Virus record (IMG/VR): IMGVR_UViG_2563366822_000008 | DNA length: 24,713 nt | Strand: one strand, 5' to 3' | Origin: a virus | Lineage: Duplodnaviria; Heunggongvirae; Uroviricota; Caudoviricetes | Made by a program: the position numbers and the translations under genes | The notes under the pieces: model-generated | What the model saw: the letters and a program-made list of their open reading frames with translations, nothing else | Databases searched by the model: none | What the model was told of the DNA's origin: nothing | Part shown: positions 1 to 24,713 of the stretch, piece after piece | Numbering within the stretch: the stretch's first letter is position 1 | Layout of the letters: every line of letters begins with the position of its first letter

Positions 1-219
1 GATAACAGCCCAATGGAACGCTTCTTCAGGAGTCTGAAGAACGAATGGATGCCGGTGGTGGGTTACGTAAGCTTCAGCGAGGCAGCTCACGCCATAACGG
101 ACTATATCGTTGGATATTACAGCGCACTAAGACCGCACGAATATAACGGTGGATTACCCCCAAACGAATCGGAAAATCGATACTGGAAAAACTCTAACTC
201 GGTGGCCAGTTTTTGTTGA
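1..219 (+). mobile_element. IS3-family insertion sequence, 3' part of transposase (OrfB) gene; element begins upstream of the window
   Basis: The ORF is open from base 1 and ends at TGA 217-219. Its translation (ERFFRSLKNEW...ITDYIVGYYSALRPHEYNGGLPPNESENRYWKN) has the conserved C-terminal pattern of IS3-family DDE transposases. The exact IS name and the right inverted repeat were not determined. Confidence 0.7.
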
Positions 220-1270
220 CCACTTCAAATACGAGACAACCGGAAGTGAAGAGACACTCAAGACGGTTATCAATACCGACTGGGGATTACCTTATCTTCC
301 CCGCGCCAGCATGGAGCAACGAAAAAGTGAATTGCTTGAGCAGCGGGCAGAGCCAGTTCCTTCCCGCAGTGTGCCGGATGGCGTTAATTTCCTTGTGGCG
401 ACAGTGGATGTGCAGGCGGGACGTCATCGCCGTTTTGTGGTTCAGGTAACGGGCTATGGCAGCCGTGGCGAACGCTGGATTATTGATCGTTACAACATCA
501 CGCAGTCATTGCGCGGTGACAGCGACGGGGAGAGCCAGCGAATTGATCCGGCCAGCTATCCGGAAGACTGGGATGTCCTGCTGACGGATGTTTTTCATAA
601 AAGCTGGCCGCTGGCCTCCGACCCTTCTCAACAAATGCGACTGATGGCAATGGCGGTGGACTCCGGCGGTGAAGACGGGGTCACTGATAATGCCTATAAA
701 TTCTGGCGTCGTTGCCGTCGTGATGGCCTTGGTAAACGTATTTACCTGTTTAAGGGCGACAGCATCCGGCGCGCAAAACTGATCACCCGTACATTCCCTG
801 ATAACACCGGACGAACGGGCCGACGGGCGCAGGCCGCAGGTGATGTGCCGCTCTGGCTTCTTCAGACGGATGCCCTGAAAGACCGGGTGAATAACGCGTT
901 ATGGCGTGACTCGCCAGGTCCCGGCTATGTGCATTTCCCTGACTGGCTGGGGAGCTGGTTTTACGACGAACTGACGTATGAAGAGCGGAGCAGTGACGGG
1001 AAATGGAGTAAGCCGGGTCGCGGTGCCAACGAAGCTTTTGACCTGATGGTGTATGCCGAGGCTCTGGTCATTCTGCATGGATACGAAAAGATCCGCTGGC
1101 CGGATGCACCGGAGTGGGCGAGCCGGGAAACCTGGCTGGAGTGTGTCCCGGACAGTACCGAACCGTCACCCTCACCGGAACCGGTACCCACGCCTGTTAA
1201 AAAACAAAAACGGAAGAAAACAGTAACTGACGATGTTAACCCCTGGCTGACTTCCGGAGGATGGTTATGA
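220..1270 (+). pseudogene. Terminase large subunit (lambda gpA family), 3' fragment (roughly the C-terminal nuclease half) truncated at its 5' side by the IS
   Basis: The translation aligns by eye with the C-terminal half of lambda gpA (VATVDVQ...WIIDRY, HFPDWLG, EAFDLMVYAEAL motifs). There is no start codon or N-terminal ATPase region; the upstream frame runs straight into the IS transposase reading frame. The 5' boundary is approximate. Confidence 0.75.
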
Positions 1271-1479
1271 ATCAGAATGATATTGAAGCCATGATTCAGC
1301 GTTATACGGAAGCTGAAATGGCGGTGCTGGACGGAAAATCCGTCACTTTTAATGGTCAGCAGATGACCATGGAAAACTTATCTGAGATCCGGCAGGGGCG
1401 GCAGGAGTGGGAGCGCCGCCTTGCGGCTCTGATTACACGACGACGGGGGCATCCCGGGTACCGGCTGGCGAGGTTCTGA
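1267..1479 (+). CDS. Head completion / head-tail joining protein, gpW-like (about 70 aa)
   Basis: Small ORF between terminase and portal, the position of lambda W. GGAGG at about 1255-1259 precedes ATG 1267, and ATG 1261 is too close to the RBS. Sequence similarity to lambda W is weak; the assignment is by size and synteny. Confidence 0.55.
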   Translation: MNQNDIEAMIQRYTEAEMAVLDGKSVTFNGQQMTMENLSEIRQGRQEWERRLAALITRRRGHPGYRLARF

Positions 1480-2987
1480 TGGCATTTCTTGATGATGTGA
1501 TTGGCGTTTTTTCACCAGGATGGAAAGCGGCAAGGCTGCGTTCCCGTGCGGTGATCCAGGCTTATGAGGCCGTAAAAACGACGCGGACACACAAAGCCCG
1601 ACGGGAGAACCGAACTGCCGACCAGTTAAGCCAGTACGGGGCCGTGTCGTTACGTGAGCAGGCTCGTTACCTTGATAACAACCACGATCTGGTCATTGGT
1701 GTATTTGACAAGCTGGAAGAACGGGTGGTGGGGAAAAACGGGATTATTGTCGAGCCACATCCGGTATTACGCAATGGGGCCATTGCCCGTGATCTGGCAG
1801 CGGAGATACGTACCCGATGGAGTGAATGGTCTGTCAGTCCGGAGGTCACCGGGCAGTTTACCCGTCCGATGCTGGAACGTCTGATGCTGCGTACCTGGCT
1901 GCGCGATGGTGAGGTGTTTGCCCAGATGGTTTCCGGGCGCATAAACAGCCTGACGCCTTCTGCCGGTGTTCATTTCTGGCTGGAGGCGCTCGAGCCGGAC
2001 TTTATTCCCATGACCAGTGATGAGAGCAACAGGCTGAATCAGGGCGTGTTTGTTGATGACTGGGGGCGTCCCGAAAAATATCTGGTGTATAAAAGCCGTC
2101 CCGTATCCGGGCGGCAGATGGAAACCAAAGAAGTGGATGCAGAGCGAATGCTGCATCTTAAATTTGTTCGCCGTCTGCACCAGATGCGCGGGACGTCTTT
2201 GTTGTCCGGTGTGCTGATCCGCCTCAGTGCTCTGAAAGAGTATGAAGATTCTGAGCTGACTGCAGCAAGGATCGCCGCTGCTCTGGGGATGTACATCCGG
2301 AAAGGCGACGGACAGAGCTATGAAACGGATGGTAATGACAGCAAGGAGAATGAACGCGAGCTTACCATTCAGCCAGGCATTATTTACGACGATCTGAAAC
2401 CCGGCGAAGAAATCGGAATGGTGAAGTCGGATCGCCCCAATCCTAACCTTGAAACTTTTCGTAATGGTCAGTTGCGTGCCGTGGCTGCGGGCAGTCGTCT
2501 GAGTTTTTCCAGTACAGCGCGCAACTATAACGGCACTTACAGCGCCCAGCGTCAGGAGCTGGTTGAATCTACTGATGGCTACCTGATCCTGCAGGACTGG
2601 TTTATTGGTGCCGTCACCCGCCCGATGTACCGTGCCTGGCTGAAACAGGCTGTGGTATCCGGTGTTATCAGGCTACCCCGCGATCTGGACCGATCTTCAC
2701 TGTATACCGCGGTGTATTCCGGACCGGTGATGCCGTGGATTGACCCTGTTAAGGAGGCTGAGGCCTGGAAAATTCAGATTCGTGGTGGAGCGGCGACAGA
2801 ATCAGACTGGGTACGTGCAGGTGGTCGTAATCCGGATGATGTCAAACGTCGGCGCAAGGCCGAAATTGATGAAAACCGCAAGCTGGATCTGGTATTTGAT
2901 ACCGATCCGGCCAGTGATAAAGGAGGCAGCAGTGCCGCAACGAAACGACAGGAGCCGCAGCACACCGACGACCAGTCCGAAGAATAA
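1479..2987 (+). CDS. Portal protein
   Basis: 502-aa ORF in the portal position; its ATG overlaps the upstream stop (TGATG at 1477-1481). Not obviously lambda B-like in sequence, so the family is unassigned. The ORF-track start at 1407 is an upstream extension overlapping W. Confidence 0.8.
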   Translation: MAFLDDVIGVFSPGWKAARLRSRAVIQAYEAVKTTRTHKARRENRTADQLSQYGAVSLREQARYLDNNHDLVIGVFDKLEERVVGKNGIIVEPHPVLRNGAIARDLAAEIRTRWSEWSVSPEVTGQFTRPMLERLMLRTWLRDGEVFAQMVSGRINSLTPSAGVHFWLEALEPDFIPMTSDESNRLNQGVFVDDWGRPEKYLVYKSRPVSGRQMETKEVDAERMLHLKFVRRLHQMRGTSLLSGVLIRLSALKEYEDSELTAARIAAALGMYIRKGDGQSYETDGNDSKENERELTIQPGIIYDDLKPGEEIGMVKSDRPNPNLETFRNGQLRAVAAGSRLSFSSTARNYNGTYSAQRQELVESTDGYLILQDWFIGAVTRPMYRAWLKQAVVSGVIRLPRDLDRSSLYTAVYSGPVMPWIDPVKEAEAWKIQIRGGAATESDWVRAGGRNPDDVKRRRKAEIDENRKLDLVFDTDPASDKGGSSAATKRQEPQHTDDQSEE

Positions 2988-3000
2988 TTCCTGGTTCAGG

Positions 3001-4971
3001 ATGCAGGCAGGTCACCAGAGTGACGCGGATATTTATATTTATGACGAGATTGGTTTCTGGGGTGTTACGGCGAAGCAGTTTATCAGTGATCTGAATGCAC
3101 TGGGCGATATCACCCACATTAATCTCCACATTAATCTCCATATTAATTCACCGGGTGGCGATGTCTTTGAAGGCATCGCCATTTTTAATGCACTGAAAAC
3201 ACATGGTGCGTCCATTACCGTTTATGTCGACGGTGTGGCGGCGTCAATGGCGTCGGTCATTGCGATGGTGGGAAACCCGGTCATTATGCCGGAAAACTCC
3301 TTCATGATGATTCATAAACCATTTGGCTTTACGGGCGGTGATGCGGAGGACATGCGCACCTATGCCGACCTGCTCGATAAAGTTGAGGCGGTTCTGTTAC
3401 CCGCTTATGCACAGAAAACCGGGAAAACCACCGATGAAATTGCTGCCATGCTGGCGGATGAGACCTGGATGTCCGGTGCCGAATGTCTGGCACAGGGATT
3501 TGCTGATCAGGTGACACCAGCCGTTAAGGCAATGGCATGTATTCAGTCAAAACGTACAGAGGAATTTAAAAAGATGCCGGAATCCATTCGAAATATGATT
3601 ACTCCGCCACGCAACAGTGCTCCACGCGTACAGGATGATGGACCTGCAGCCTCCCGGACGCCAGTGCAGGCAGCAGCACCCGTGGTGGATGAAAACAGCA
3701 TCCGTGCGCAGGTCCTGGCAGAGCAAAAAGCGCGTGTAAACGGTATTAATGATCTGTTTGCCATGTTTGGCGGGCGTTATCAGTCGTTGCAGGCTCAGTG
3801 TCTTGCCGATCCTGAATGTTCGCTGGAGCAGGCCCGCGAAAAGCTGTTGAACGAGATGGGGCGCGAGTCCACGCCATCCAATAAAAATACCCCGGCTCAT
3901 ATTTATGCCGGTAACGGTAATTTTGTGGGGGACGGGATCCGCCAGGCGCTGATGGCGCGCGCCGGGTTTGAAAAAACTGAACGTGATAATGTCTACAACG
4001 GGATGACCCTGCGTGAATATGCCCGTATGTCACTGACTGAACGTGGTATTGGTGTTTCCAGTTATAACCCGATGCAGATGGTCGGTGCGGCGTTCACACA
4101 CAGTACGTCTGACTTCGGTAATATTCTGCTGGATGTTGCGAACAAAGCCATTCTGCAGGGCTGGGAAGATGCCCCTGAAACCTATGAACAGTGGACGCGG
4201 AAAGGTCAGTTGTCTGATTTTAAAATTGCCCATCGTGTGGGTATGGGGGGCTTCAGTGCTCTGCGTCAGGTGCGTGAAGGGGCAGAATATAAATACGTCA
4301 CCACCGGAGATAAACAGGCCACTATTGCACTGGCGACCTATGGCGAGCTGTTCAGTATCACCCGTCAGGCCATTATCAATGATGATCTGAATATGCTGAC
4401 CGATGTCCCGATGAAGCTGGGCCGTGCGGCGAAATCCACTATTGCCGATCTGGTTTATGCCATTCTGACGTCTAACCCGAAAATCTCCACAGATAATGTA
4501 AGTCTGTTCGATAAAGCGAAACATGCAAACGTACTGGAGAGCGCGGCAATGGACGTGGCATCGCTGGATAAAGCCCGCCAGTTGATGCGCGTTCAGAAAG
4601 AGGGTGAGCGTCATCTGAATATTCGTCCTGCGTTCGTACTGGTACCGACGGCGATGGAGTCTGTTGCTAACCAGGTCATTCGCTCCTCAAGTGTCAAGGG
4701 GGCTGACATTAACGCCGGTATTATTAACCCGGTGAAAGATTTTGCGACCGTTATTGCAGAGCCTCGTCTTGATGATAACAGCCAGACCACCTTCTACCTG
4801 GCTGCGTCCAAAGGCTCCGATACGATTGAAGTGGCTTATCTCAACGGTGTGGATACGCCATATATTGATCAGATGGAGGGCTTCAGTGTGGATGGCGTGA
4901 CAACGAAAGTGCGTATTGACGCTGGTGTTGCGCCAGTTGATCACCGCGGCCTGGTGAAATGTACGGCGTAA
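3001..4971 (+). CDS. Prohead protease (ClpP/S14-like) - scaffold/linker - major capsid protein fusion
   Basis: The N-terminal ~180 aa carry ClpP-like motifs (INSPGGDV, ASMASVIAMVG, MMIHKP), followed by an Ala/Pro/Gln-rich linker, and the C-terminal ~330 aa are capsid-like. Start taken at ATG 3001, just after the portal stop. The track ORF 2740-4971 includes a 5' extension inside the portal gene. Confidence 0.8.
   Translation: MQAGHQSDADIYIYDEIGFWGVTAKQFISDLNALGDITHINLHINLHINSPGGDVFEGIAIFNALKTHGASITVYVDGVAASMASVIAMVGNPVIMPENSFMMIHKPFGFTGGDAEDMRTYADLLDKVEAVLLPAYAQKTGKTTDEIAAMLADETWMSGAECLAQGFADQVTPAVKAMACIQSKRTEEFKKMPESIRNMITPPRNSAPRVQDDGPAASRTPVQAAAPVVDENSIRAQVLAEQKARVNGINDLFAMFGGRYQSLQAQCLADPECSLEQAREKLLNEMGRESTPSNKNTPAHIYAGNGNFVGDGIRQALMARAGFEKTERDNVYNGMTLREYARMSLTERGIGVSSYNPMQMVGAAFTHSTSDFGNILLDVANKAILQGWEDAPETYEQWTRKGQLSDFKIAHRVGMGGFSALRQVREGAEYKYVTTGDKQATIALATYGELFSITRQAIINDDLNMLTDVPMKLGRAAKSTIADLVYAILTSNPKISTDNVSLFDKAKHANVLESAAMDVASLDKARQLMRVQKEGERHLNIRPAFVLVPTAMESVANQVIRSSSVKGADINAGIINPVKDFATVIAEPRLDDNSQTTFYLAASKGSDTIEVAYLNGVDTPYIDQMEGFSVDGVTTKVRIDAGVAPVDHRGLVKCTA
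3114..3150 (+). repeat. Tandem direct repeat: CCACATTAATCTC x2 plus a degenerate third copy, in frame (encodes HINLHINLHINS)
   Basis: Read directly at 3114-3139 (two perfect 13-nt copies) and 3139-3150 (diverged copy), immediately before the INSPGG motif of the protease. Confidence 0.9.
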
Positions 4972-6647: not shown

Positions 6648-7391
6648 ATGACCACACCAAATCCACTGGCAAAGACGAAAGGTGCGGGGACGACGTTCTG
6701 GATGTATACCGGCAACGGCGATGCGTTTGCGAACCCTTTGTCGGACACTGACTGGCTGCGTCTTGCGATGGTGAAGGATCTGCAACCTGGCGAAATGACC
6801 GCTGATGCAGAAGATGACACTTATCTCGATGATGAAGATGCAGACTGGAAAACGACAACCCAGGGGCAGAAATCCGTTGGTGATACTTCGGCGACGCTGG
6901 CCTGGCGTCCGGGTGACAGCGGGCAGAAAAAACTGGTTCAGTTGTTCGACTCCGGTGAAGTCTGCGCGTTTCGTATCAAATATCCCAACGGCACTGTTGA
7001 TGTTTTCCGTGGCTGGCTGAGCTCACTGGGTAAAACCATTGCCTCAAAAGACGTGATGACCCGCACTGTGAAAATCAGCGGTGTGGGGCGTCCGTATCTG
7101 GCAGAGGAAGGCACTGAAACCGTGAGCGTTACCGGGCTGACAGTATCACCGGCGTCTGCCAGTGTAAAAGTGGGAGCAACCACCACGCTGACCTTTACAG
7201 TAAAACCTGACGGAGCCAGTGACAAAGCGAGCAGTGTGCATTCGTCAGATCCACAGACTGCCACGGTTACCCTGAACGGACTTGTGGCCACGGTAAAAGG
7301 CGTGAAGCAGGGCAGTGTCAGCATTGTGGGCATGACCGCTGACGGGAATTTTGTGGCTGTGACTGCGGTGACTGTCAGCGCAGCAGGTTAA
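6648..7391 (+). CDS. V: Major tail protein V with C-terminal Ig-like (Big_2-type) domain
   Basis: AGGAGG RBS 6638-6643, ATG 6648. N-terminal tube domain and a Thr/Val/Ser-rich C-terminal Ig-like region as in lambda V. Confidence 0.85.
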   Translation: MTTPNPLAKTKGAGTTFWMYTGNGDAFANPLSDTDWLRLAMVKDLQPGEMTADAEDDTYLDDEDADWKTTTQGQKSVGDTSATLAWRPGDSGQKKLVQLFDSGEVCAFRIKYPNGTVDVFRGWLSSLGKTIASKDVMTRTVKISGVGRPYLAEEGTETVSVTGLTVSPASASVKVGATTTLTFTVKPDGASDKASSVHSSDPQTATVTLNGLVATVKGVKQGSVSIVGMTADGNFVAVTAVTVSAAG

Positions 7392-7411
7392 CAGGACGAT
7401 ACTCATCATTT

Positions 7412-7436
7412 GCCCCGGTTATGCGGGGCTTTTTTG
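7412..7436 (+). terminator. Intrinsic terminator after V
   Basis: GCCCCG-GTTATG-CGGGGC hairpin (7412-7429) followed by TTTTTT (7430-7435). Confidence 0.65.
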
Positions 7437-7448
7437 CAGGTGGAGAAC

Positions 7449-7856
7449 ATGATGTTTCTGAAACAGGACACGTTTAATTATGAAAAACAGTCCGTGGTGC
7501 TCAGTGAGCTGTCCGGGCTGCAGAGAATTGAATATCTGATGTTTGTTCAGCAGCGAACGGCAAAGTTTGATGCCGGGGAGGGAGAACTGCCGGAGGCTGA
7601 ACGACAGATTGCTTTTCTGCGGATGGGGATGGATATCAATGCCTGGCTGGTTTCCCGCTCACTGTGGAATGCGGAACAGTCTCAGGATGTTGAGACGCTT
7701 TACGCATCCGTTATTACAACATGGTCGTATGATGCCCTGGGGGCGGGGGCGGGGGCGGGGGCGGGGGCGGAGATGGTTCTGTCGCTGAGCGGTATGGGGG
7801 CCATTGATAATGCCGGGGATTTGGAGCATGAGGTGCTGACGCCGGAAAAGTCCTGA
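7449..7856 (+). CDS. G: Tail assembly chaperone G
   Basis: MMFLKQD...LSELSGLQRIE matches the lambda G N-terminus (MFLK...LSELSALQRIE). GGTGGAG RBS. Stop TGA at 7854-7856. Confidence 0.85.
   Translation: MMFLKQDTFNYEKQSVVLSELSGLQRIEYLMFVQQRTAKFDAGEGELPEAERQIAFLRMGMDINAWLVSRSLWNAEQSQDVETLYASVITTWSYDALGAGAGAGAGAEMVLSLSGMGAIDNAGDLEHEVLTPEKS
7739..7769 (+). repeat. (GGGGGC)x5 hexanucleotide tandem repeat inside G, encoding (Gly-Ala)5
   Basis: Read directly: five G5 tracts separated by single C. In frame, giving GAGAGAGAGA in the protein. Confidence 0.95.
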
Positions 7857-8194
7857 CGCGGGAAATGCAGTTTGTCATGCGGCTTGCCCGGGAGTTCCGG
7901 CGGGCAGACTGGCGGCGGATGCTGTCGGAAATGTCGGCCACTGAGCTTGGTGAGTGGGGCGATTATTTCCGGATGCAGAGCTTCAGTGATGTGTGGATGG
8001 ATGCGCAGTTTGCCTCGCTGAAGGCATTGATCGTGAGAATGGTGTCCGGCAGCAGTGATGCTGCGGTGGCTGATTTCAGCCTTTTACCGGAAGAGAACGG
8101 GATACCGGAGCGAACGGACGAAGAACTGATGCATCTTGGGGAAGGTATTTCCGGAGGTGTGCGTTATGGACCAGATAGCCAACCTGGTCATTGA
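7832..8194 (+). CDS. T: T segment of the tail assembly chaperone G-T fusion, predicted to be expressed by -1 programmed ribosomal frameshift from G
   Basis: The -1 frame relative to G is open from 7832 (after an in-frame TGA at 7829-7831) to 8194 and overlaps the last eight codons of G. The only candidate slip site in the overlap is GGAAAAG at 7844-7850. Position between G and H is as in lambda. Confidence 0.6.
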   Translation, partial: GADAGKVLTREMQFVMRLAREFRRADWRRMLSEMSATELGEWGDYFRMQSFSDVWMDAQFASLKALIVRMVSGSSDAAVADFSLLPEENGIPERTDEELMHLGEGISGGVRYGPDSQPGH

Positions 8195-11100
8195 TTTGGG
8201 GATTGATGCGGCAGAGTTTAAAAATGAAATTCCCCGTATCAAAAACCTTCTGAATGGTGCAGCCAGCGATGCAGAACGGTCTTCTGCCCGTATGCAGCGT
8301 TTTATGGAGCGTCAGACTCAGGCCGCCCGGCAGACAACGCAGGCGGCGTCTTCGGCTGCAACAGCCGCATCCGTCCATGCGCAGACGGTGGAGAAGAACG
8401 CACAGGCTCATGAACGCATGGCCCGCGAGGTGGAGAAAACCCGCCAGCGTATGGAGGCACTGAGCCAGAAAATGCGCGAGGAACAGGCGCAGGCCATGGC
8501 TCTGGCGGAGGCTCAGGATAAAGCAGCTGCTGCGTTTTATCGTCAGATTGACAGTGTGAAACAGGCCAGTGCGGGGCTGCAGGAATTACAGCGTATTCAG
8601 CAGCAGATCCGACAGGCCAGAAACAGTGGCGGGATTGGTCAGCAGGATTATCTGGCACTGATTTCTGAGGTTACGGCGAAAACCCGTGTTCTTACACAGG
8701 CTGAGGAAGAGGCTACCCGACAGAAAGTGGCGTTTATCCGTCAGCTTAAAGAGCAGGCAACCCGCCAGAATCTTTCTTCTTCTGAGTTGCTTCGTGCTAA
8801 GGCTGCCCAGCTGGGGGTAAGCAGTGCTGCAGAAGTGTATATCCGCAAAATGGAGCAGGCAGGAAAAACCACGCATTCGCTGGGTCTGAAAAGTGCAGCG
8901 GCCCGCCAGGAGATAGGCGTTCTGATAGGTGAACTGGCCCGCGGCAATTTAGGGGCGCTGAGGGGATCCGGGATAACGCTGGCTAACCGTGCCGGATGGA
9001 TAGACACTCTGATGTCACCGAAAGGCATGATGCTTGGCGGTATTGCCGCGTCCGTCTATGGTCTGGGTAAAGCCTGGTATGACGGTCAGAAGGAGGGGGA
9101 AGAATTTAACCGCCAGTTGTCGCTGACGGGGCATTATGCCGGAGTCACTGCCGGGCAGCTGTGGACGCTCAGTCGTGCTATTTCCGGGAATGGTATCACG
9201 CAACATGCTGCAGCCGGTGTGCTGGCTCAGGTGGTGGGGAGTGGTGCATTTCGTGGAAACGATATCGGTATGGTGGCGAGAGCTGCCGCACAGATGGAGC
9301 GATCGGTTGGCCAGTCGGTCAGCGATACCATAAATCAGTTTAAGCGGCTGAAGGATGATCCTGTAAATGCCGCGAAGGCTCTGGACAATGAGCTGCATTT
9401 TCTTACTGCCACTCAGCTTGAGCAGATACGTGTCCTTGGGGATCAGGGACGGTCCAGTGATGCTGCACGGATAGCCATGTCTGCACTGGCAGAGGAAACC
9501 GGTCGGCGTACTGCGGATATTGATAATAACCTCAATGCGCTTGGCAGTACGCTGAAGTATCTGTCTGATTTGTGGAGTCGTTTCTGGGATGCGGCCATGA
9601 ATATTGGTCGTGAAGACTCGCTGGATGAACAGATTGCCGCTTTACAGGAGAAAGTGTCGCGGGCGAAAAGACTCCCCTGGACGGCATCATCTTCTCAGGT
9701 TGAATACGATCAGCAGCGTCTTAACGATCTTCAGGAGAAAAAACGCCAGAAGGATTTGCAGGATGCAAAAGAGCAGGCAGAGCGGAATTATCAGGAGCAA
9801 CAGAAACGACGTAATGCTGAAAATGCTGCACTGAACCGGATGAATGAAACGGAAGCAGCACGACATCAGCGTGAAATTGCGCGTATTAATTCCATGCAGT
9901 ACGCCGATCAGGCTGTCAGGGATGCAGCGATACAACGTGAAAATGAACGTTACGAGAAAGCCCTGGCATCCGGTAAGAAAAAAACACGCGAAACCCGTAA
10001 TGATGAGGCCACCCGGTTATTGCTGCAGTACAGTCAGCAACAGGCACAGGTGGAAGGACAGATTGCTGCTGCAAGACAGTCAGCAGGCATTGCCACTGAA
10101 AAGATGACAGAAGCGCATAAACAGCTTCTGGCTCTGCAGCAGCGCATCAGCGATCTGGACGGGAAAAAACTGACGGCAGATGAAAAGAGTGTGCTGGCCC
10201 GTAAAGATGAACTGATTCAGGCACTGACGCTGCTGGATGTAAAACAGCAGGAGCTTCAGAAACAGACGGCACTCAACGATCTGAAGAAAAAAACAATTCA
10301 GCTGACCAGTCAACTGGCTGAAGAAGAGCTCGCTCAGCGTCAGCAACATGACCTGGATATCGCCACGGTGGGTATGGGTGATCAGCAGCGGCAGCGATAT
10401 CAGGTACAACTGAGTCTTCGCCAGAAATACCAGCAACAGCTGGAGCAGTTGAGGCGGGATAGTGAGCAGAAAGGGACATATAACACGGATGACCACAGAA
10501 AGGCCGAGCAGGCGCTGACGGAGAGCCTGAACCGACAACTGAATGAGAATCGCCGTTACTGGCAACAGCTTGAAGTTGTGCAGGGTAACTGGAAAAACGG
10601 AGTCCTGCGTGCATTTCAGGATTTTACCGTGGATGCAGACAATACGGCAGGAACAGCAGAACAGGTGTTCTCGTCAGCCTTCAGCAACATGGGAAATGGC
10701 CTGGCAACTTTTGTCACTACCGGCAAACTCAACTTCAAATCCTTCACCTCTTCGGTGCTGTCAGATATGGCGAAAATCCTGGCGCAGGCAACCATGATGA
10801 AATCGATAAAAGGGATTGGCAGTGTACTGGGATTTGATCTCAGCAGCCTTTCCCTGAATGCCAATGGGGGGATTTATCAGTCTGCTGATTTGAGTCGTTA
10901 CAGTGGCACGGTGGTTAACCGTCCGACGTTTTTTGCTTTTGCAAAAGGCGCGGGTGTGATGGGGGAAGCTGGACCTGAAGCCATTCTGCCACTGCGTCGT
11001 GGTGCTGACGGTAAGCTGGGGGTTGTGGCGGATATTGGTGGTTCAGGTATGGCGATGTTTGCCCCGCAGTACAACATCGAGATCAATAACGATGGCACGA

Positions 11101-21482: not shown

Positions 21483-21505
21483 ATCTCACACCGAGATTAT
21501 TTTTT
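21483..21505. terminator. Short hairpin plus T-tract at the convergent tfa / recombinase junction
   Basis: ATCTC-ACACC-GAGAT (21483-21497) followed by TATTTTTTAT. Weak 5-bp stem; the T-tract overlaps the recombinase stop codon. Confidence 0.3.
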
Positions 21506-22094
21506 ATATGTCAGGTGTCTGAAGTTTTGCTTTGGCTCTTAAAATGGTTTGCCGCGAGGTTTTGAATTCCCGGGCAATGGCACTTATACTTACACCTGAC
21601 TTAATTCGTTCGAATACCGCCTGTTTCTGTTCTTCATTTAACACAGGTGGTCGACCAAAACGTTTCCCTGCGCCGCGGGCTCTTACTATCCCGGAATGAG
21701 TGCGTTCAAGTAAAAGGTCTCGTTCAAATTCAGCGACTGCTGAAATTACTTGCATCATCATTTTTCCTGTTGGACTGGTCAGGTCAATGCCCCCCAATGC
21801 TAAGCAATGCACTCTGATACCTGTTTCGGTCAGTTGTTCCACTGTTTTCCTGATATCCATTGCATTACAACCAAGGCGATCCAGTTTTGTCACAATCAAT
21901 TGATCACCACATTTCAGGCGAGCAAGCAACCGGTTAAAACCAGGACGCTCACTGGTTGCTGCTGAGCCGCTAATGTGTTCTTCGATTATTTGCTGAGGTT
22001 TGATTTTAAAACCTGCACTTTCGATTTCCCGGCGTTGATTTTCGGTGGTCTGATCCAGCGTTGATATCCGACAGTAAGCAAAAATTCGAGACAT
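21504..22094 (-). CDS. pinQ: Serine recombinase (resolvase/invertase family), Pin-like
   Basis: 196 aa. N-terminal catalytic region with the nucleophile in YCRISTLDQ, and a C-terminal helix-turn-helix ([17 protein letters not shown]). The specific symbol is assigned from gene order (tfa-pin-small gene-MFS) and is uncertain; the family call is firm. Confidence 0.85.
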
Positions 22095-22231
22095 AGTGAG
22101 ACTCTATACGAAATTGGTGTTCATATCATAATGCATCTCAGAAAATAATTATGATTATTTTTGTGCATATTTGTATGTACACGTTCGAAAATAAACGAAT
22201 GCGTATGCAACTCCGTAATTTTGGTGAAACC

Positions 22232-22245
22232 CAAAATCGATTTTG
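22232..22245. promoter_or_regulatory. 14-bp perfect palindrome CAAAATCGATTTTG upstream of the recombinase gene
   Basis: Read directly; about 140 bp upstream of the pin start codon on the template side. A second inverted repeat AACTCG-N10-CGAGTT lies at 22260-22281. Confidence 0.3.
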
Positions 22246-22410
22246 TGAAAAATGGCTTTAACTCGGTTTGCTTTTCGAGTTCCGGGCGGACTCAAGGAAG
22301 AAGAATAGTGTTGCGTGTTATTTTAACCAGATTTCAAGTTGTTTGGTCGTGGAAAAGTGGAGCAAAATGTTGTTAAAGTGGAGAAATGATAAAAAAGTAA
22401 GTTTATTATA

Positions 22411-22644
22411 TTACATTTTACCATTTAAATTTTGGTTGTCTTTAAGAACTGATATCGCTGTTTGTAATAATTCTTTGTTATCCAGCCATGATTTTTTCTT
22501 TATGTTTCCTTCAATGTAATCAAGCAATGTTCTGGTATTGATAGGTCTTCCCTGTTTTGCTACTTCCACTACAGCATCCCCTAGGATAATTCTTACTTCA
22601 GGAAGCTGCGCAGGGAACCACTTTAGGGTGTCTTTTGATTTCAT
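22411..22644 (-). CDS. ydfK: Small prophage protein, YdfK/YnaE-like (77 aa)
   Basis: The ORF lies in an AT-rich segment. The internal ATG at 22644 has an AGGA RBS 8-9 nt upstream and gives 77 aa (MKSKDTLKWFPAQLPEV...); the track's longer 88-aa start at 22677 lacks an RBS. Naming rests on size and locus synteny recalled from E. coli K-12, not on a search. Confidence 0.5.
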   Translation of the reverse strand: MKSKDTLKWFPAQLPEVRIILGDAVVEVAKQGRPINTRTLLDYIEGNIKKKSWLDNKELLQTAISVLKDNQNLNGKM

Positions 22645-23150
22645 GAAGATATTCCTTAAAATATTATTGATTTTCATTGCGATATTGTATGTCTGATTCA
22701 GGATATGTTGACTTATACATCGGTTTTGTCTGGGTTATTGGATATGCCAATCCCTAATTTTATTAGGGCATGACTAAAAATGCTGAATATGATAAGGAGA
22801 GATGTGATTATCAGTATGCTGTTCATATAGCCTCGAATTAGTAATGTGTTATATATGATATAGTTGACAATTTTTATCTTGGGTGTTCTTAAAGTTCGTA
22901 AATAAACATTGTCGTTTCAGGTATACAGGAATGCTAACAGGTGGCAGCAAAAATCAGGCGGTTTATGGCGCAAGCTGAAGCGGCAACTGCAAACTATCTT
23001 ATGCAGAGACTCTACACGGATTGGGTTTAAAAGTATACATAGATAACAGTTTTTATCTGAAAAAGAAAAATATCAAGGTGATATAGCCTATATGCCTTTG
23101 ATGCGGAGGAATGAATGTGATGGGAGTGATGTATCTGAATAGTTGAAAAA

Positions 23151-23184
23151 CCGCAGACACGCCTTATGCAAGAACGTGCTGCGG
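23151..23184 (-). terminator. Hairpin followed by a T5 run on the - strand (candidate minus-strand terminator or leader structure)
   Basis: CCGCAG(A)CACG-N13-CGTGCTGCGG, a 10-bp stem with one bulge. On the - strand it is followed immediately by TTTTT (the + strand reads AAAAA at 23146-23150). Confidence 0.4.
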
Positions 23185-23429
23185 TTGGCTGGTAAATTTT
23201 TCGATAGTGTGAGTATTGAATGATTTCCAGCCGTTCTTGATTTTACGCATAAATCCATGAAAAAACTACTTATCTGTTGGGGAGTTTTTTTGGGGCATAT
23301 ATGGGACAGAAATAGGCCCCAGATAGACACTGAGATCGAACTTAGGATGCTTTTTAAAAAATGCAACTATCTGAAAAAACCTAGAAAACGCCAAGGAAAC
23401 CACAGGATGGGAAAAAACACCTGTGAATT

Positions 23430-24713
23430 ATGGATTTCCAGTTATATTCGCTCGGCGCAGCGTTGGTGTTTCATGAAATATTTTTTCCTGAATCATCAAC
23501 GGCAATGGCGTTAATTTTGGCAATGGGAACCTACGGTGCAGGTTATGTGGCGCGTATTGTCGGAGCATTTATTTTCGGCAAAATGGGCGACAGAATAGGG
23601 CGTAAAAAAGTGCTCTTTATTACCATCACCATGATGGGGATCTGTACCACCTTAATTGGTGTGTTACCGACCTATGCACAGATTGGTGTTTTTGCCCCCA
23701 TCTTGCTGGTGACGCTGCGTATTATTCAGGGGTTGGGTGCAGGTGCGGAAATTTCCGGTGCCGGTACGATGCTGGCGGAATATGCACCAAAAGGTAAGCG
23801 CGGAATTATCTCCTCATTTGTAGCTATGGGAACTAACTGCGGAACCTTGAGCGCAACGGCAATCTGGGCCTTTATGTTCTTCATTCTCAGTAAAGAGGAA
23901 CTGCTGGCGTGGGGATGGCGTATACCGTTCCTGGCGAGCGTTGTCGTGATGGTCTTTGCTATCTGGTTACGTATGAATCTGAAAGAAAGCCCGGTCTTTG
24001 AGAAGGTTAATGACAGCAACCAACCCACAGCAAAACCTGCACCTGCTGGTAGCATGTTCCAGAGCAAATCCTTCTGGCTGGCAACAGGGCTGCGTTTTGG
24101 TCAGGCGGGTAACTCCGGGTTAATTCAGACTTTCCTTGCAGGCTATTTAGTGCAGACGTTATTGTTTAACAAAGCAATTCCAACAGATGCATTGATGATT
24201 AGTTTGATTCTCGGCTTTATGACCATTCCGTTCCTTGGTTGGTTATCCGATAAAATTGGTCGCCGGATCCCGTATATTATTATGAATACCTCCGCGATTG
24301 TGCTGGCATGGCCAATGCTTTCTATCATTGTAGATAAAAGCTATGCCCCGAGCACCATTATGGTTGCACTGATTGTGATTCATAACTGTGCGGTGCTGGG
24401 ATTATTTGCTCTGGAAAACATTACCATGGCAGAAATGTTCGGCTGTAAAAACCGCTTTACCCGGATGGCTATTTCTAAAGAAATTGGTGGTCTTATCGCT
24501 TCCGGTTTTGGTCCTATCCTGGCGGGTATTTTCTGCACCATGACGGAATCCTGGTATCCGATCGCCATTATGATCATGGCATATTCAGTAATTGGTTTAA
24601 TCTCTGCGCTGAAAATGCCAGAGGTGAAAGACCGTGATTTAAGTGCGCTGGAAGACGCTGCGGAAGATCAACCGCGTGTTGTAAGAGCTGCGCAACCTTC
24701 CAGAAGTCTGTAA
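23430..24713 (+). CDS. ydfJ: MFS transporter (metabolite:H+ symporter-like), N-terminally truncated; candidate host gene interrupted by the prophage
   Basis: 427 aa with multiple hydrophobic helices and the MFS signature GKMGDRIGRKK after the first helix present. In intact family members this motif follows TM2, so about one helix plus the N-terminus appears to be missing. The symbol is a context-based guess. Confidence 0.8.
   Translation: MDFQLYSLGAALVFHEIFFPESSTAMALILAMGTYGAGYVARIVGAFIFGKMGDRIGRKKVLFITITMMGICTTLIGVLPTYAQIGVFAPILLVTLRIIQGLGAGAEISGAGTMLAEYAPKGKRGIISSFVAMGTNCGTLSATAIWAFMFFILSKEELLAWGWRIPFLASVVVMVFAIWLRMNLKESPVFEKVNDSNQPTAKPAPAGSMFQSKSFWLATGLRFGQAGNSGLIQTFLAGYLVQTLLFNKAIPTDALMISLILGFMTIPFLGWLSDKIGRRIPYIIMNTSAIVLAWPMLSIIVDKSYAPSTIMVALIVIHNCAVLGLFALENITMAEMFGCKNRFTRMAISKEIGGLIASGFGPILAGIFCTMTESWYPIAIMIMAYSVIGLISALKMPEVKDRDLSALEDAAEDQPRVVRAAQPSRSL

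Follow-up and report, generated by a model that had tools for sequence, protein, structure and literature searches.

The 24,713-nt stretch of DNA analyzed here (the window) is part of a prophage at the Qin locus of E. coli strain KTE142 that appears to have decayed recently, and in this strain specifically, through several insertion sequences (IS). The tip of an IS911 copy adjoins nucleotide 1061 of the large-terminase gene (terL), and 2,067 bp of phage DNA were probably lost; a probability of about 70% was assigned to this reading as a whole. The IS911 junction is real and recent, and it destroys the terminase. IS911 transposition made this junction, because the break falls exactly at the terminal nucleotide of the element. 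Packaging is not the sole function that was lost.

The window corresponds to KTE142 scaffold KB732916.1 (GCA_000351925.1), to which it was identical over the 11,270 nt compared. Upstream comparisons were performed with a longer stretch of this scaffold (L002), in which window position 1 is position 9691. A run of 1,985 N occupies L002 7705-9689 and ends one base before the window start; the assembled IS911 end in the scaffold comprises 228 nt, with one extra base 5' of the window between it and the N gap. The left edge of the window is a contig end within a repeat and not a biological boundary. The window alone tells nothing about what lies upstream, its edge being an assembly gap.

The window opens on the plus strand with the final 227 bp of IS911, an IS3-family (IS3 group) element first described in Shigella dysenteriae, at 100% identity to annotated IS911 copies. 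A complete copy of 1,249 bp (L012 579-1827) served as reference, the window segment corresponding to L012 1601-1827. This copy is annotated as 'IS3-like element IS911 family transposase' with a programmed frameshift, and hundreds of E. coli copies were 100% identical over the 227 bp. The reference organization of IS911 comprises orfA and orfB with a programmed -1 frameshift (PMC2909936). In the window, the C-terminus of orfB (the transposase) is read in frame 1 as far as a stop codon at 217-219. Pfam analysis of the 68-aa translation of 13-216 yielded rve_3 at 26.6 bits (cut-off 26.5) and rve_2 at 26.1 bits (cut-off 22), values barely over threshold because the transposase fragment is short. 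The DNA itself is that of an annotated transposase 3' end, and a DDE (rve) transposase C-terminus is encoded up to the right end of the element.

The right terminal inverted repeat (IRR) contains the orfB stop codon, as in IS911. Its tip reads ...TTCA at position 227, consistent with the 5'-TG...CA-3' ends of IS911, and its length is the 36 bp given for IS911 inverted repeats (PMC2909936). When its reverse complement, TGAAGTGGTCAACAAAAACTGGCCACC..., was aligned with the left inverted repeat (IRL) of the full copy, 24 of 36 positions were alike. The preliminary description, made from the window sequence, had recognized an IS3-family element ending in a terminase gene; this element is IS911, with the terminase beginning at 228. 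The IRR, which was to be sought by aligning 200-300, was located at 192-227, starting just left of that interval and continuing into it. In contrast to a typical IS911, the window shows a right end only, and the nearest other end in the scaffold is an inverted right end rather than a left one. If the junction arose by simple insertion, the trinucleotide AAT that follows the tip would be one copy of a 3-bp target-site duplication (Table 1); direct duplications flanking IS911 measure 3-4 bp.

Intact gpA-like terL genes are present in many E. coli. At least 14 complete E. coli genomes carry an intact prophage that matched window positions 228-1500 (1,273 nt) with 100.0% identity, and all of these alignments began exactly at 228. 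In the intact allele of E. coli 1943 (L001 4941..7043; 2,103 nt, 700 aa, 'phage terminase large subunit family protein'), position 228 corresponds to nucleotide 1061, within codon 354. Pfam placed GpA_ATPase at residues 41-304 and GpA_nuclease at residues 326-644 of the intact protein, the canonical order of the lambda gpA type, with a lambda-family portal encoded next. In contrast, the window copy retains residues 354-700 only (99.7% in the protein alignment) and matched GpA_nuclease (PF20454) with 6e-78 at profile positions 28-294 of 294 only.

GpA_ATPase (PF05876) was not found in the window; this whole domain and the first ~28 residues of the nuclease domain are missing from the remnant. 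The nuclease is itself incomplete, the break at codon 354 lying inside the domain of residues 326-644. The absence of an ATPase region had already been described, and this is correct with the refinement that the break lies 28 residues into the nuclease domain and not at a domain boundary. An intact terminase elsewhere in the prophage had been considered; neither this nor any other terminase sequence was found, whether within the window or over the 10 kb that precede it. In GenBank, the remnant carries a 319-aa 'hypothetical protein A1YU_00999' (ELF13586.1; start ATG at 311), which would be better annotated as a terminase pseudogene fragment. No sigma70-like promoter was predicted over window positions 1-1600, an interval that includes the IS/terL junction, and for this reason a hybrid outward promoter formed by the IS911 IRR and terL was rejected.

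Downstream of terL, 22 reference proteins from intact relatives were aligned with the window, and each was recovered at full length in a single HSP with 90-100% identity. They comprised DUF6148, portal, protease/capsid fusion, DUF2190, Gifsy-2-like, Z, U, V, G, T and tape measure, and further M, L, K, I, J, Lom, tail fibre, tfaQ, pinQ, ydfK and ynfT. The capsid gene has the form of a ClpP-protease/major-capsid fusion, with G/T listed between V and the tape measure. The downstream structural genes had been described as intact, and with 22 of 22 proteins in one piece this was borne out. The prophage was placed at the Qin locus because the window ends in a truncated ydfJ, which lacks its N-terminus and extends on the plus strand from 23430 to the window end.

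Table 1. Features of the window, with positions, strand and the basis of each assignment.
Feature	Position	Strand	Basis or content
IS911 3' end, including orfB C-terminus	1-227	+	Identity to annotated copies; Pfam rve_3/rve_2
IS911 right terminal inverted repeat (IRR), 36 bp	192-227	+	Direct reading; tip ...CCACTTCA at 227
Candidate target duplication, first 3 target bases AAT	228-230	+	Inferred from junction alignment with intact genes
terL 3' remnant, pseudogene fragment with most of the nuclease domain	228-1270	+	terL nt 1061-2103, codons 354 (partial)-700 and stop
Intact head and tail morphogenesis genes, DUF6148 to tfaQ	1267-21406	+	Full-length protein alignments; ORF sizes
Prophage right end and attachment locus	21504-24713	mixed	pinQ (-), ydfK (-), ynfT (-), ydfJ (+)

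A search upstream of the window for the 5' part of terL had been proposed. On the far side of the 1,985-N gap, an inverted IS911 end within an IS481-family IS was found instead. L002 7612-7704 is the exact reverse complement (100%) of L002 9825-9917, which identifies a second IS911 right end in opposite orientation to the window copy; the 5' half of terL is not there. The ~154 bp that precede it (L002 ~7458-7611) are the left end (nt 1-~154) of an IS481-family element, with a 100% match to the copy in E2348/69 (L010 2501-2657), and the second IS911 end is nested inside this fragment. Comparison of three copies delimited the IS481-family element to about 1.1 kb. In KTE142 it starts 40 bp after a phage gene encoding 68 aa, and the phage DNA up to that point was 99.9% identical to uninterrupted relatives.

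The 10 kb upstream of the window contain at least four IS ends. Of the four contig edges, three break off after 93-95 nt of a repeat. Edges of this kind reflect a repeat-limited assembly and the behavior of a large-k assembler, of which ALLPATHS-LG (K=96) is an example.

An intact prophage in strain FCI1 (L011, of which 6934-9000 equals NZ_CM172811.1 2460818-2462884) was used to determine what is missing. The KTE142 scaffold matched L011 2228-6933 and resumed at L011 9001, and the 2,067 bp between these points are absent from it. They comprise the presumed cos region, which is intergenic, a DUF1441 gene (PF07278) in the small-terminase (terS) position and nucleotides 1-1060 of terL. Unlike in lambda, the upstream partner of the terminase in intact relatives is this DUF1441 protein and not Pfam Phage_Nu1. 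Neither the 5' half of terL nor a DUF1441 gene was called in the 10 kb upstream of the window, and the DUF1441 protein was retrieved solely from genomes other than KTE142.

In the scaffold, 2,306 bp separate the two outward-facing IS911 tips. A pair of complete IS911 copies and nothing else would require 2,498 bp, and one IS911 copy with the rest of the IS481-family element and the assembled 228-bp IS911 end would require ~2,420 bp. Two IS911 copies (2 x 1,249 bp) together with the rest of the IS481-family element (~944 bp) and the 2,067 bp of phage DNA would require ~5.5 kb. The missing phage DNA together with the IS remainders would exceed the gap by ~3.3 kb. The N runs in this locus (1,445 and 1,985) are not round numbers and were therefore taken as size estimates rather than placeholders. 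On these grounds the cos region, terS and the 5' part of terL were probably deleted, or displaced, rather than concealed within the gap. Regarding the assembly, mate pairs can yield erroneous gap sizes, and a 2-kb repeat-flanked segment could be dropped or collapsed if KTE142 has another prophage with an identical terS-terL 5' region.

Further IS damage was observed toward the early region. The second N run (L002 1218-2662, 1,445 N) is bounded on the left by the right end of an IS481-family element joined to a T6SS vgrG truncated at L002 1122, and on the right by a reversed IS911 left end (L002 2663-2757, equal to L012 673-579). This third IS911 end abuts phage DNA at L011 2228; the Q antiterminator gene and its tRNA genes lie upstream of this point. 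At the corresponding place FCI1 carries Q, rusA, ydfU, rem, hokD, dicC, dicB, exo, xis and int, and no vgrG was found in ~35 kb of chromosome upstream of the FCI1 prophage. Shared contig starts near the third IS911 junction were considered as the same event; they lie 6-8 nt away from the junction and were attributed to a graph fork.

At its upstream border, the KTE142 late region meets IS911 and vgrG::IS481 where Q and the tRNA genes stand in relatives. In scaffold order it lacks the antiterminator, the region of the late promoter and all of the early region. In a functional lambdoid prophage, cos, the terminases, Q with the late promoter, and the early region would be contiguous with the late genes, and this arrangement was not found. 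Two earlier proposals are affected. A single hit as the only lesion does not hold, given the IS481-family insertion, the second IS911 copy and the third IS911/vgrG junction. It is also unlikely that the prophage could still make heads and tails, because in scaffold order its late region has lost Q, the late-promoter region and the early region, from which the third IS911 cuts it off.

The 2,067 bp are most likely gone rather than unassembled, and we infer both the deletion and the following order of events. An IS481-family element would have inserted 40 bp after the 68-aa phage gene, and IS911 would then have inserted into it. After two or three IS insertions, a deletion mediated by or associated with IS ends may have removed the 2,067 bp. 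Farther upstream, a third IS911 cuts the late operon off from Q, from the region of the late promoter and from all of the early region, and the outcome would be a prophage remnant that is neither inducible nor packageable. The head/tail module of ~20 kb remains sequence-perfect owing to the recency of these events.

IS911 transposes by a copy-out/paste-in mechanism in which one end attacks the other to form a figure-eight, replication converts this into a circle with abutted ends 3-4 bp apart, and integration of the circle follows (PMC2909936). This mechanism accounts for a break at precisely the IS tip. Two routes could account for the loss of phage DNA. Along the first, the ends of two IS copies would be joined and the DNA between them deleted. 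An event of this kind has been described for IS30 and ascribed to the figure-eight pathway (PMC9333248), which is common to the IS3 family (PMC2909936). Site-specific deletion and dimerization of IS30, as well as the circle and dimer junctions of IS911, would give two end-abutted IS copies, as the gap size suggests. However, the documented reactive junctions of IS30 and IS911 are IRL-IRR, whereas the KTE142 locus would need IRL-IRL or another route. Along the second, an adjacent deletion would extend from the right end of the IS481-family element into the terL-proximal IS911. Considering the five junctions, several schemes (duplicative inversion, recombination between IS copies, adjacent deletion) fit the outer ones.

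A simple insertion was regarded as the strongest alternative, yet an unlikely one. Under this explanation a complete IS911 lies in terL with a 3-bp duplication, nothing has been deleted, and an under-sized gap holds the 5' half of terL, the DUF1441 gene and cos together with the rest of an independent IS481::IS911. The right junction has exactly the form expected, the inverted IS911 ends fit two independent insertions in opposite orientation, and nested repeats defeat assemblers, as the contig edges 93-95 nt into a repeat illustrate. The 5' half of terL was not observed at the opposite flank of this IS911 copy in the scaffold, where the sequence inside the gap consists of Ns. However, ~5.5 kb would have to fit into an estimated 2.3 kb, and the unique 2-kb segment from the cos region to terL nucleotide 1063 should have formed a contig of its own, which the scaffold does not contain.

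The predicted junction of the terL 5' part with the IRL and its read-through products were likewise found nowhere in the collections searched. With duplications of 2 to 4 bp, the left junction was absent from 5,426 complete E. coli genomes, GTDB representatives and JGI metagenomes. Exact look-ups of read-through proteins consisting of terL(1-354) and IS911-IRL, either full or cut at an overhang of 93-97 nt, returned none, which is weak evidence as these constructs assume that the KTE142 N-terminus equals WP_000934104.1 and that the contig ends at a particular point. Even if a simple insertion were true, a single hit would not account for the locus, as the junctions of the IS481-family element, the second IS911 and the third IS911/vgrG remain. 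The proposal that an IS inactivated packaging holds in part: IS911 does adjoin a terL without its ATPase half, but a simple insertion could not be demonstrated and the context is one of multiple IS.

A more specific form of the deletion was considered improbable, namely that two inverted IS911 copies are fused or nearly fused at their left ends (IRL-IRL) and that the ~3 kb between them was excised precisely by transposase. Such a fusion would arise by 'inside-out' figure-eight or circle formation on the chromosome, with excision of the rest of the IS481-family element, the cos region, terS and the 5' part of terL. Two complete IS911 copies abutted head to head form a near-perfect palindrome of 2.5 kb. 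Palindromes of this length are expected to be unstable in E. coli. The low probability given to this structure reflects the genome survey: among the 5,426 complete genomes no directly abutted head-to-head IS911 pair (IRL-IRL) was found, and only three genomes carried head-to-head pairs of the IS911-like ISEc52, all with spacers of 0.5-0.6 kb. If true, the fusion would represent a natural chromosomal IRL-IRL junction and a 2.5-kb quasi-palindrome tolerated by the cell.

An assembly or scaffolding chimera, with an intact terminase in the real genome, was judged very improbable. The window does start at a contig edge in a multi-copy repeat, and the junction is present in no other genome. However, IS sequence gives way to terL precisely at the terminal base of IS911, and this point lies within a contig, flanked by 228 nt of IS and by 24 kb of phage DNA; there is no reason for an artefact to respect the IS tip. 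In addition, the assembled scaffold contains no intact terL, and the far side of the gap consists of IS911/IS481. It is hardly credible that the fragment is a genuine stand-alone nuclease-only gene with its own function (319 aa from the ATG at 311): although the ORF has an ATG and is annotated in GenBank, its DNA matches an internal part of a 700-aa gene at 100% identity, its nuclease domain lacks the beginning, no sigma70-like promoter was predicted over 1-1600, and the 319-aa call occurs elsewhere only with a terL nonsense mutation, an 8-bp deletion or a contig end.

With respect to the age of the deletion and the insertions, the terL remnant carries zero mutations relative to intact alleles over 1,273 nt. 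Searches of 5,426 complete E. coli genomes, GTDB representatives, JGI metagenomes and IMG/VR did not recover the IS911/terL junction, nor did any other contig with the same 319-aa ORF contain it. The phage/IS481, IS481/IS911 and vgrG/IS481 junctions were absent from complete E. coli genomes. Since the remnant does not differ from intact alleles (100% identity) and the junctions were found in KTE142 only, the events were considered recent and specific to the KTE142 lineage; the earlier estimate of a fairly recent origin is supported.

The KTE142 element resembles Qin of E. coli K-12 and its fuller relatives in the attachment locus at ydfJ (truncated ydfJ, ydfK, ynfT, pinQ, tfaQ) and in the lysis/cspI/gnsB block upstream. 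In K-12 Qin the head/tail module has been lost, whereas the KTE142 element keeps a complete module of 20 kb. In contrast to plain deletions, the lesions in KTE142 are IS-borne, with IS911 present three times and IS481-family elements twice. IS insertion and IS-mediated deletion are a standard, already known form of prophage decay in E. coli, and the KTE142 case is ordinary in this respect. The element is a remnant without packaging genes and, in scaffold order, without late-gene control, and it is not one mutation away from function. The importance of the case extends little beyond annotation; the intact 20-kb head/tail module could nevertheless donate genes by recombination to incoming lambdoid phages.

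In other samples of the same prophage, terL and its immediate surroundings were also a frequent site of lesions, many of them independent. These included a TCG-to-TAG nonsense codon (L003), an 8-bp deletion (L006) and deletions that start at terL codon 447 or 474 and extend as far as the tail-fibre or ydfK region (L034, L040, L042). An insertion with an 8-bp duplication was observed a few bases from the KTE142 site (L014/L005), and its ends are what we take to be IS66-family-like.

The bare 354-aa terL fragment was also found, and six of its eight contigs end at CAGGAA(T)(A). An insertion hot spot at terL codon 354 was considered and rejected as a selection effect, a query of exactly 354 residues returning only contigs that end there. 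One of these contig ends is an Illumina adapter, and a contig with the 3' ORF (L004) starts with a Nextera adapter.

The large-terminase gene terL was found to be interrupted by a different element in the Logan run SRR26217379, at a site only a few bases from the IS911 junction of KTE142. This element ended in GTAAGCGACTCG... and ...GAGCCGGTTAC and was flanked by an 8-bp duplication, CAGGAATA; such ends and a duplication of this length are typical of the IS66 family. The insertion is a separate event at essentially the same terL position as that in KTE142. Coordinates are collected in the table.

In two further samples, the same prophage carried terL inactivated by small changes: a TCG-to-TAG nonsense change at ~5421 of contig L003 (SRR9984568) and an 8-bp deletion (CCGGCGTT) at ~1750 of contig L006 (ENA ERZ28575525). 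Both the nonsense change and the deletion resulted in the same 319-aa downstream ORF being called as in KTE142. The two lesions were located upstream of the sequence equivalent to the window.

Contigs L034, L040, and L042 show the Qin-locus prophage in additional states of decay. One of them retained 447 aa of terL, fused directly to ydfK/ynfT/ydfJ; the other two retained 474 aa, with the tail-fibre-assembly/pin region following the break. Deletions thus end in terL repeatedly.

When breakpoints are searched for in Logan contigs, adapter sequence fused to terL is a pitfall, as such fusions look like insertion junctions. A Nextera adapter (AGATGTGTATAAGAGACAG) was present at L004 1-25 and a TruSeq adapter (AGATCGGAAGAGCACACGTCTGA) at L017 2056-2077.

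The contig edges in KTE142 were compared between window 1-228 and positions 7612-7704 and 2663-2757 of the scaffold (L002). The contig holding the window reached 228 nt into IS911, compared to 93-95 nt for the other three repeat-bounded edges. This difference in reach may indicate that the IS911 copy in the window carries a SNP relative to the other KTE142 copies, ~130 nt from its end.

Further upstream in the same scaffold, an IS481-family element truncates the type VI secretion gene vgrG with its right end, at L002 1122. In scaffold order, the truncated gene adjoins the prophage late region via a gap bounded by a third IS911, and this arrangement implies a larger deletion or inversion by which the early region of the prophage was lost from this place.

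Features and their positions
Feature	Position	Remark
Non-IS911 element in terL	L014 7106-7156 and L005 1-40	equivalent to window ~224-231
Stretch of KTE142 scaffold with vgrG	L002 1-1217	~8.5-9.7 kb upstream of window
Lesions of FCI1 prophage (portal, integrase)	L011 10180-11761 and L033 35346-36625	from annotation
12-bp tandem repeat CCACATTAATCT, 2.8 copies	window 3114-3147	within ClpP-protease/major-capsid fusion gene
Perfect (GGGGGC) x 5.3 hexanucleotide repeat	window 7739-7770	in G (tail assembly chaperone), close to its 3' end

The "intact" comparison prophage of E. coli FCI1 had lesions of its own: in the annotation, the portal gene is split into two CDSs and the integrase is marked as frameshifted. 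As FCI1 is a long-read-style assembly, both may be sequencing errors.

Two genes of the window contained tandem repeats. The repeat in the capsid fusion gene encodes HINLHINLHIN, and the product was 679 aa long compared to 675-676 aa in relatives; the length difference therefore reflects in-frame copy-number variation. The G protein comprised 134 aa, compared to 128 aa in FCI1, and the two aligned with one gap. The hexanucleotide repeat in G is an in-frame expansion, located just upstream of the expected G/T frameshift site.
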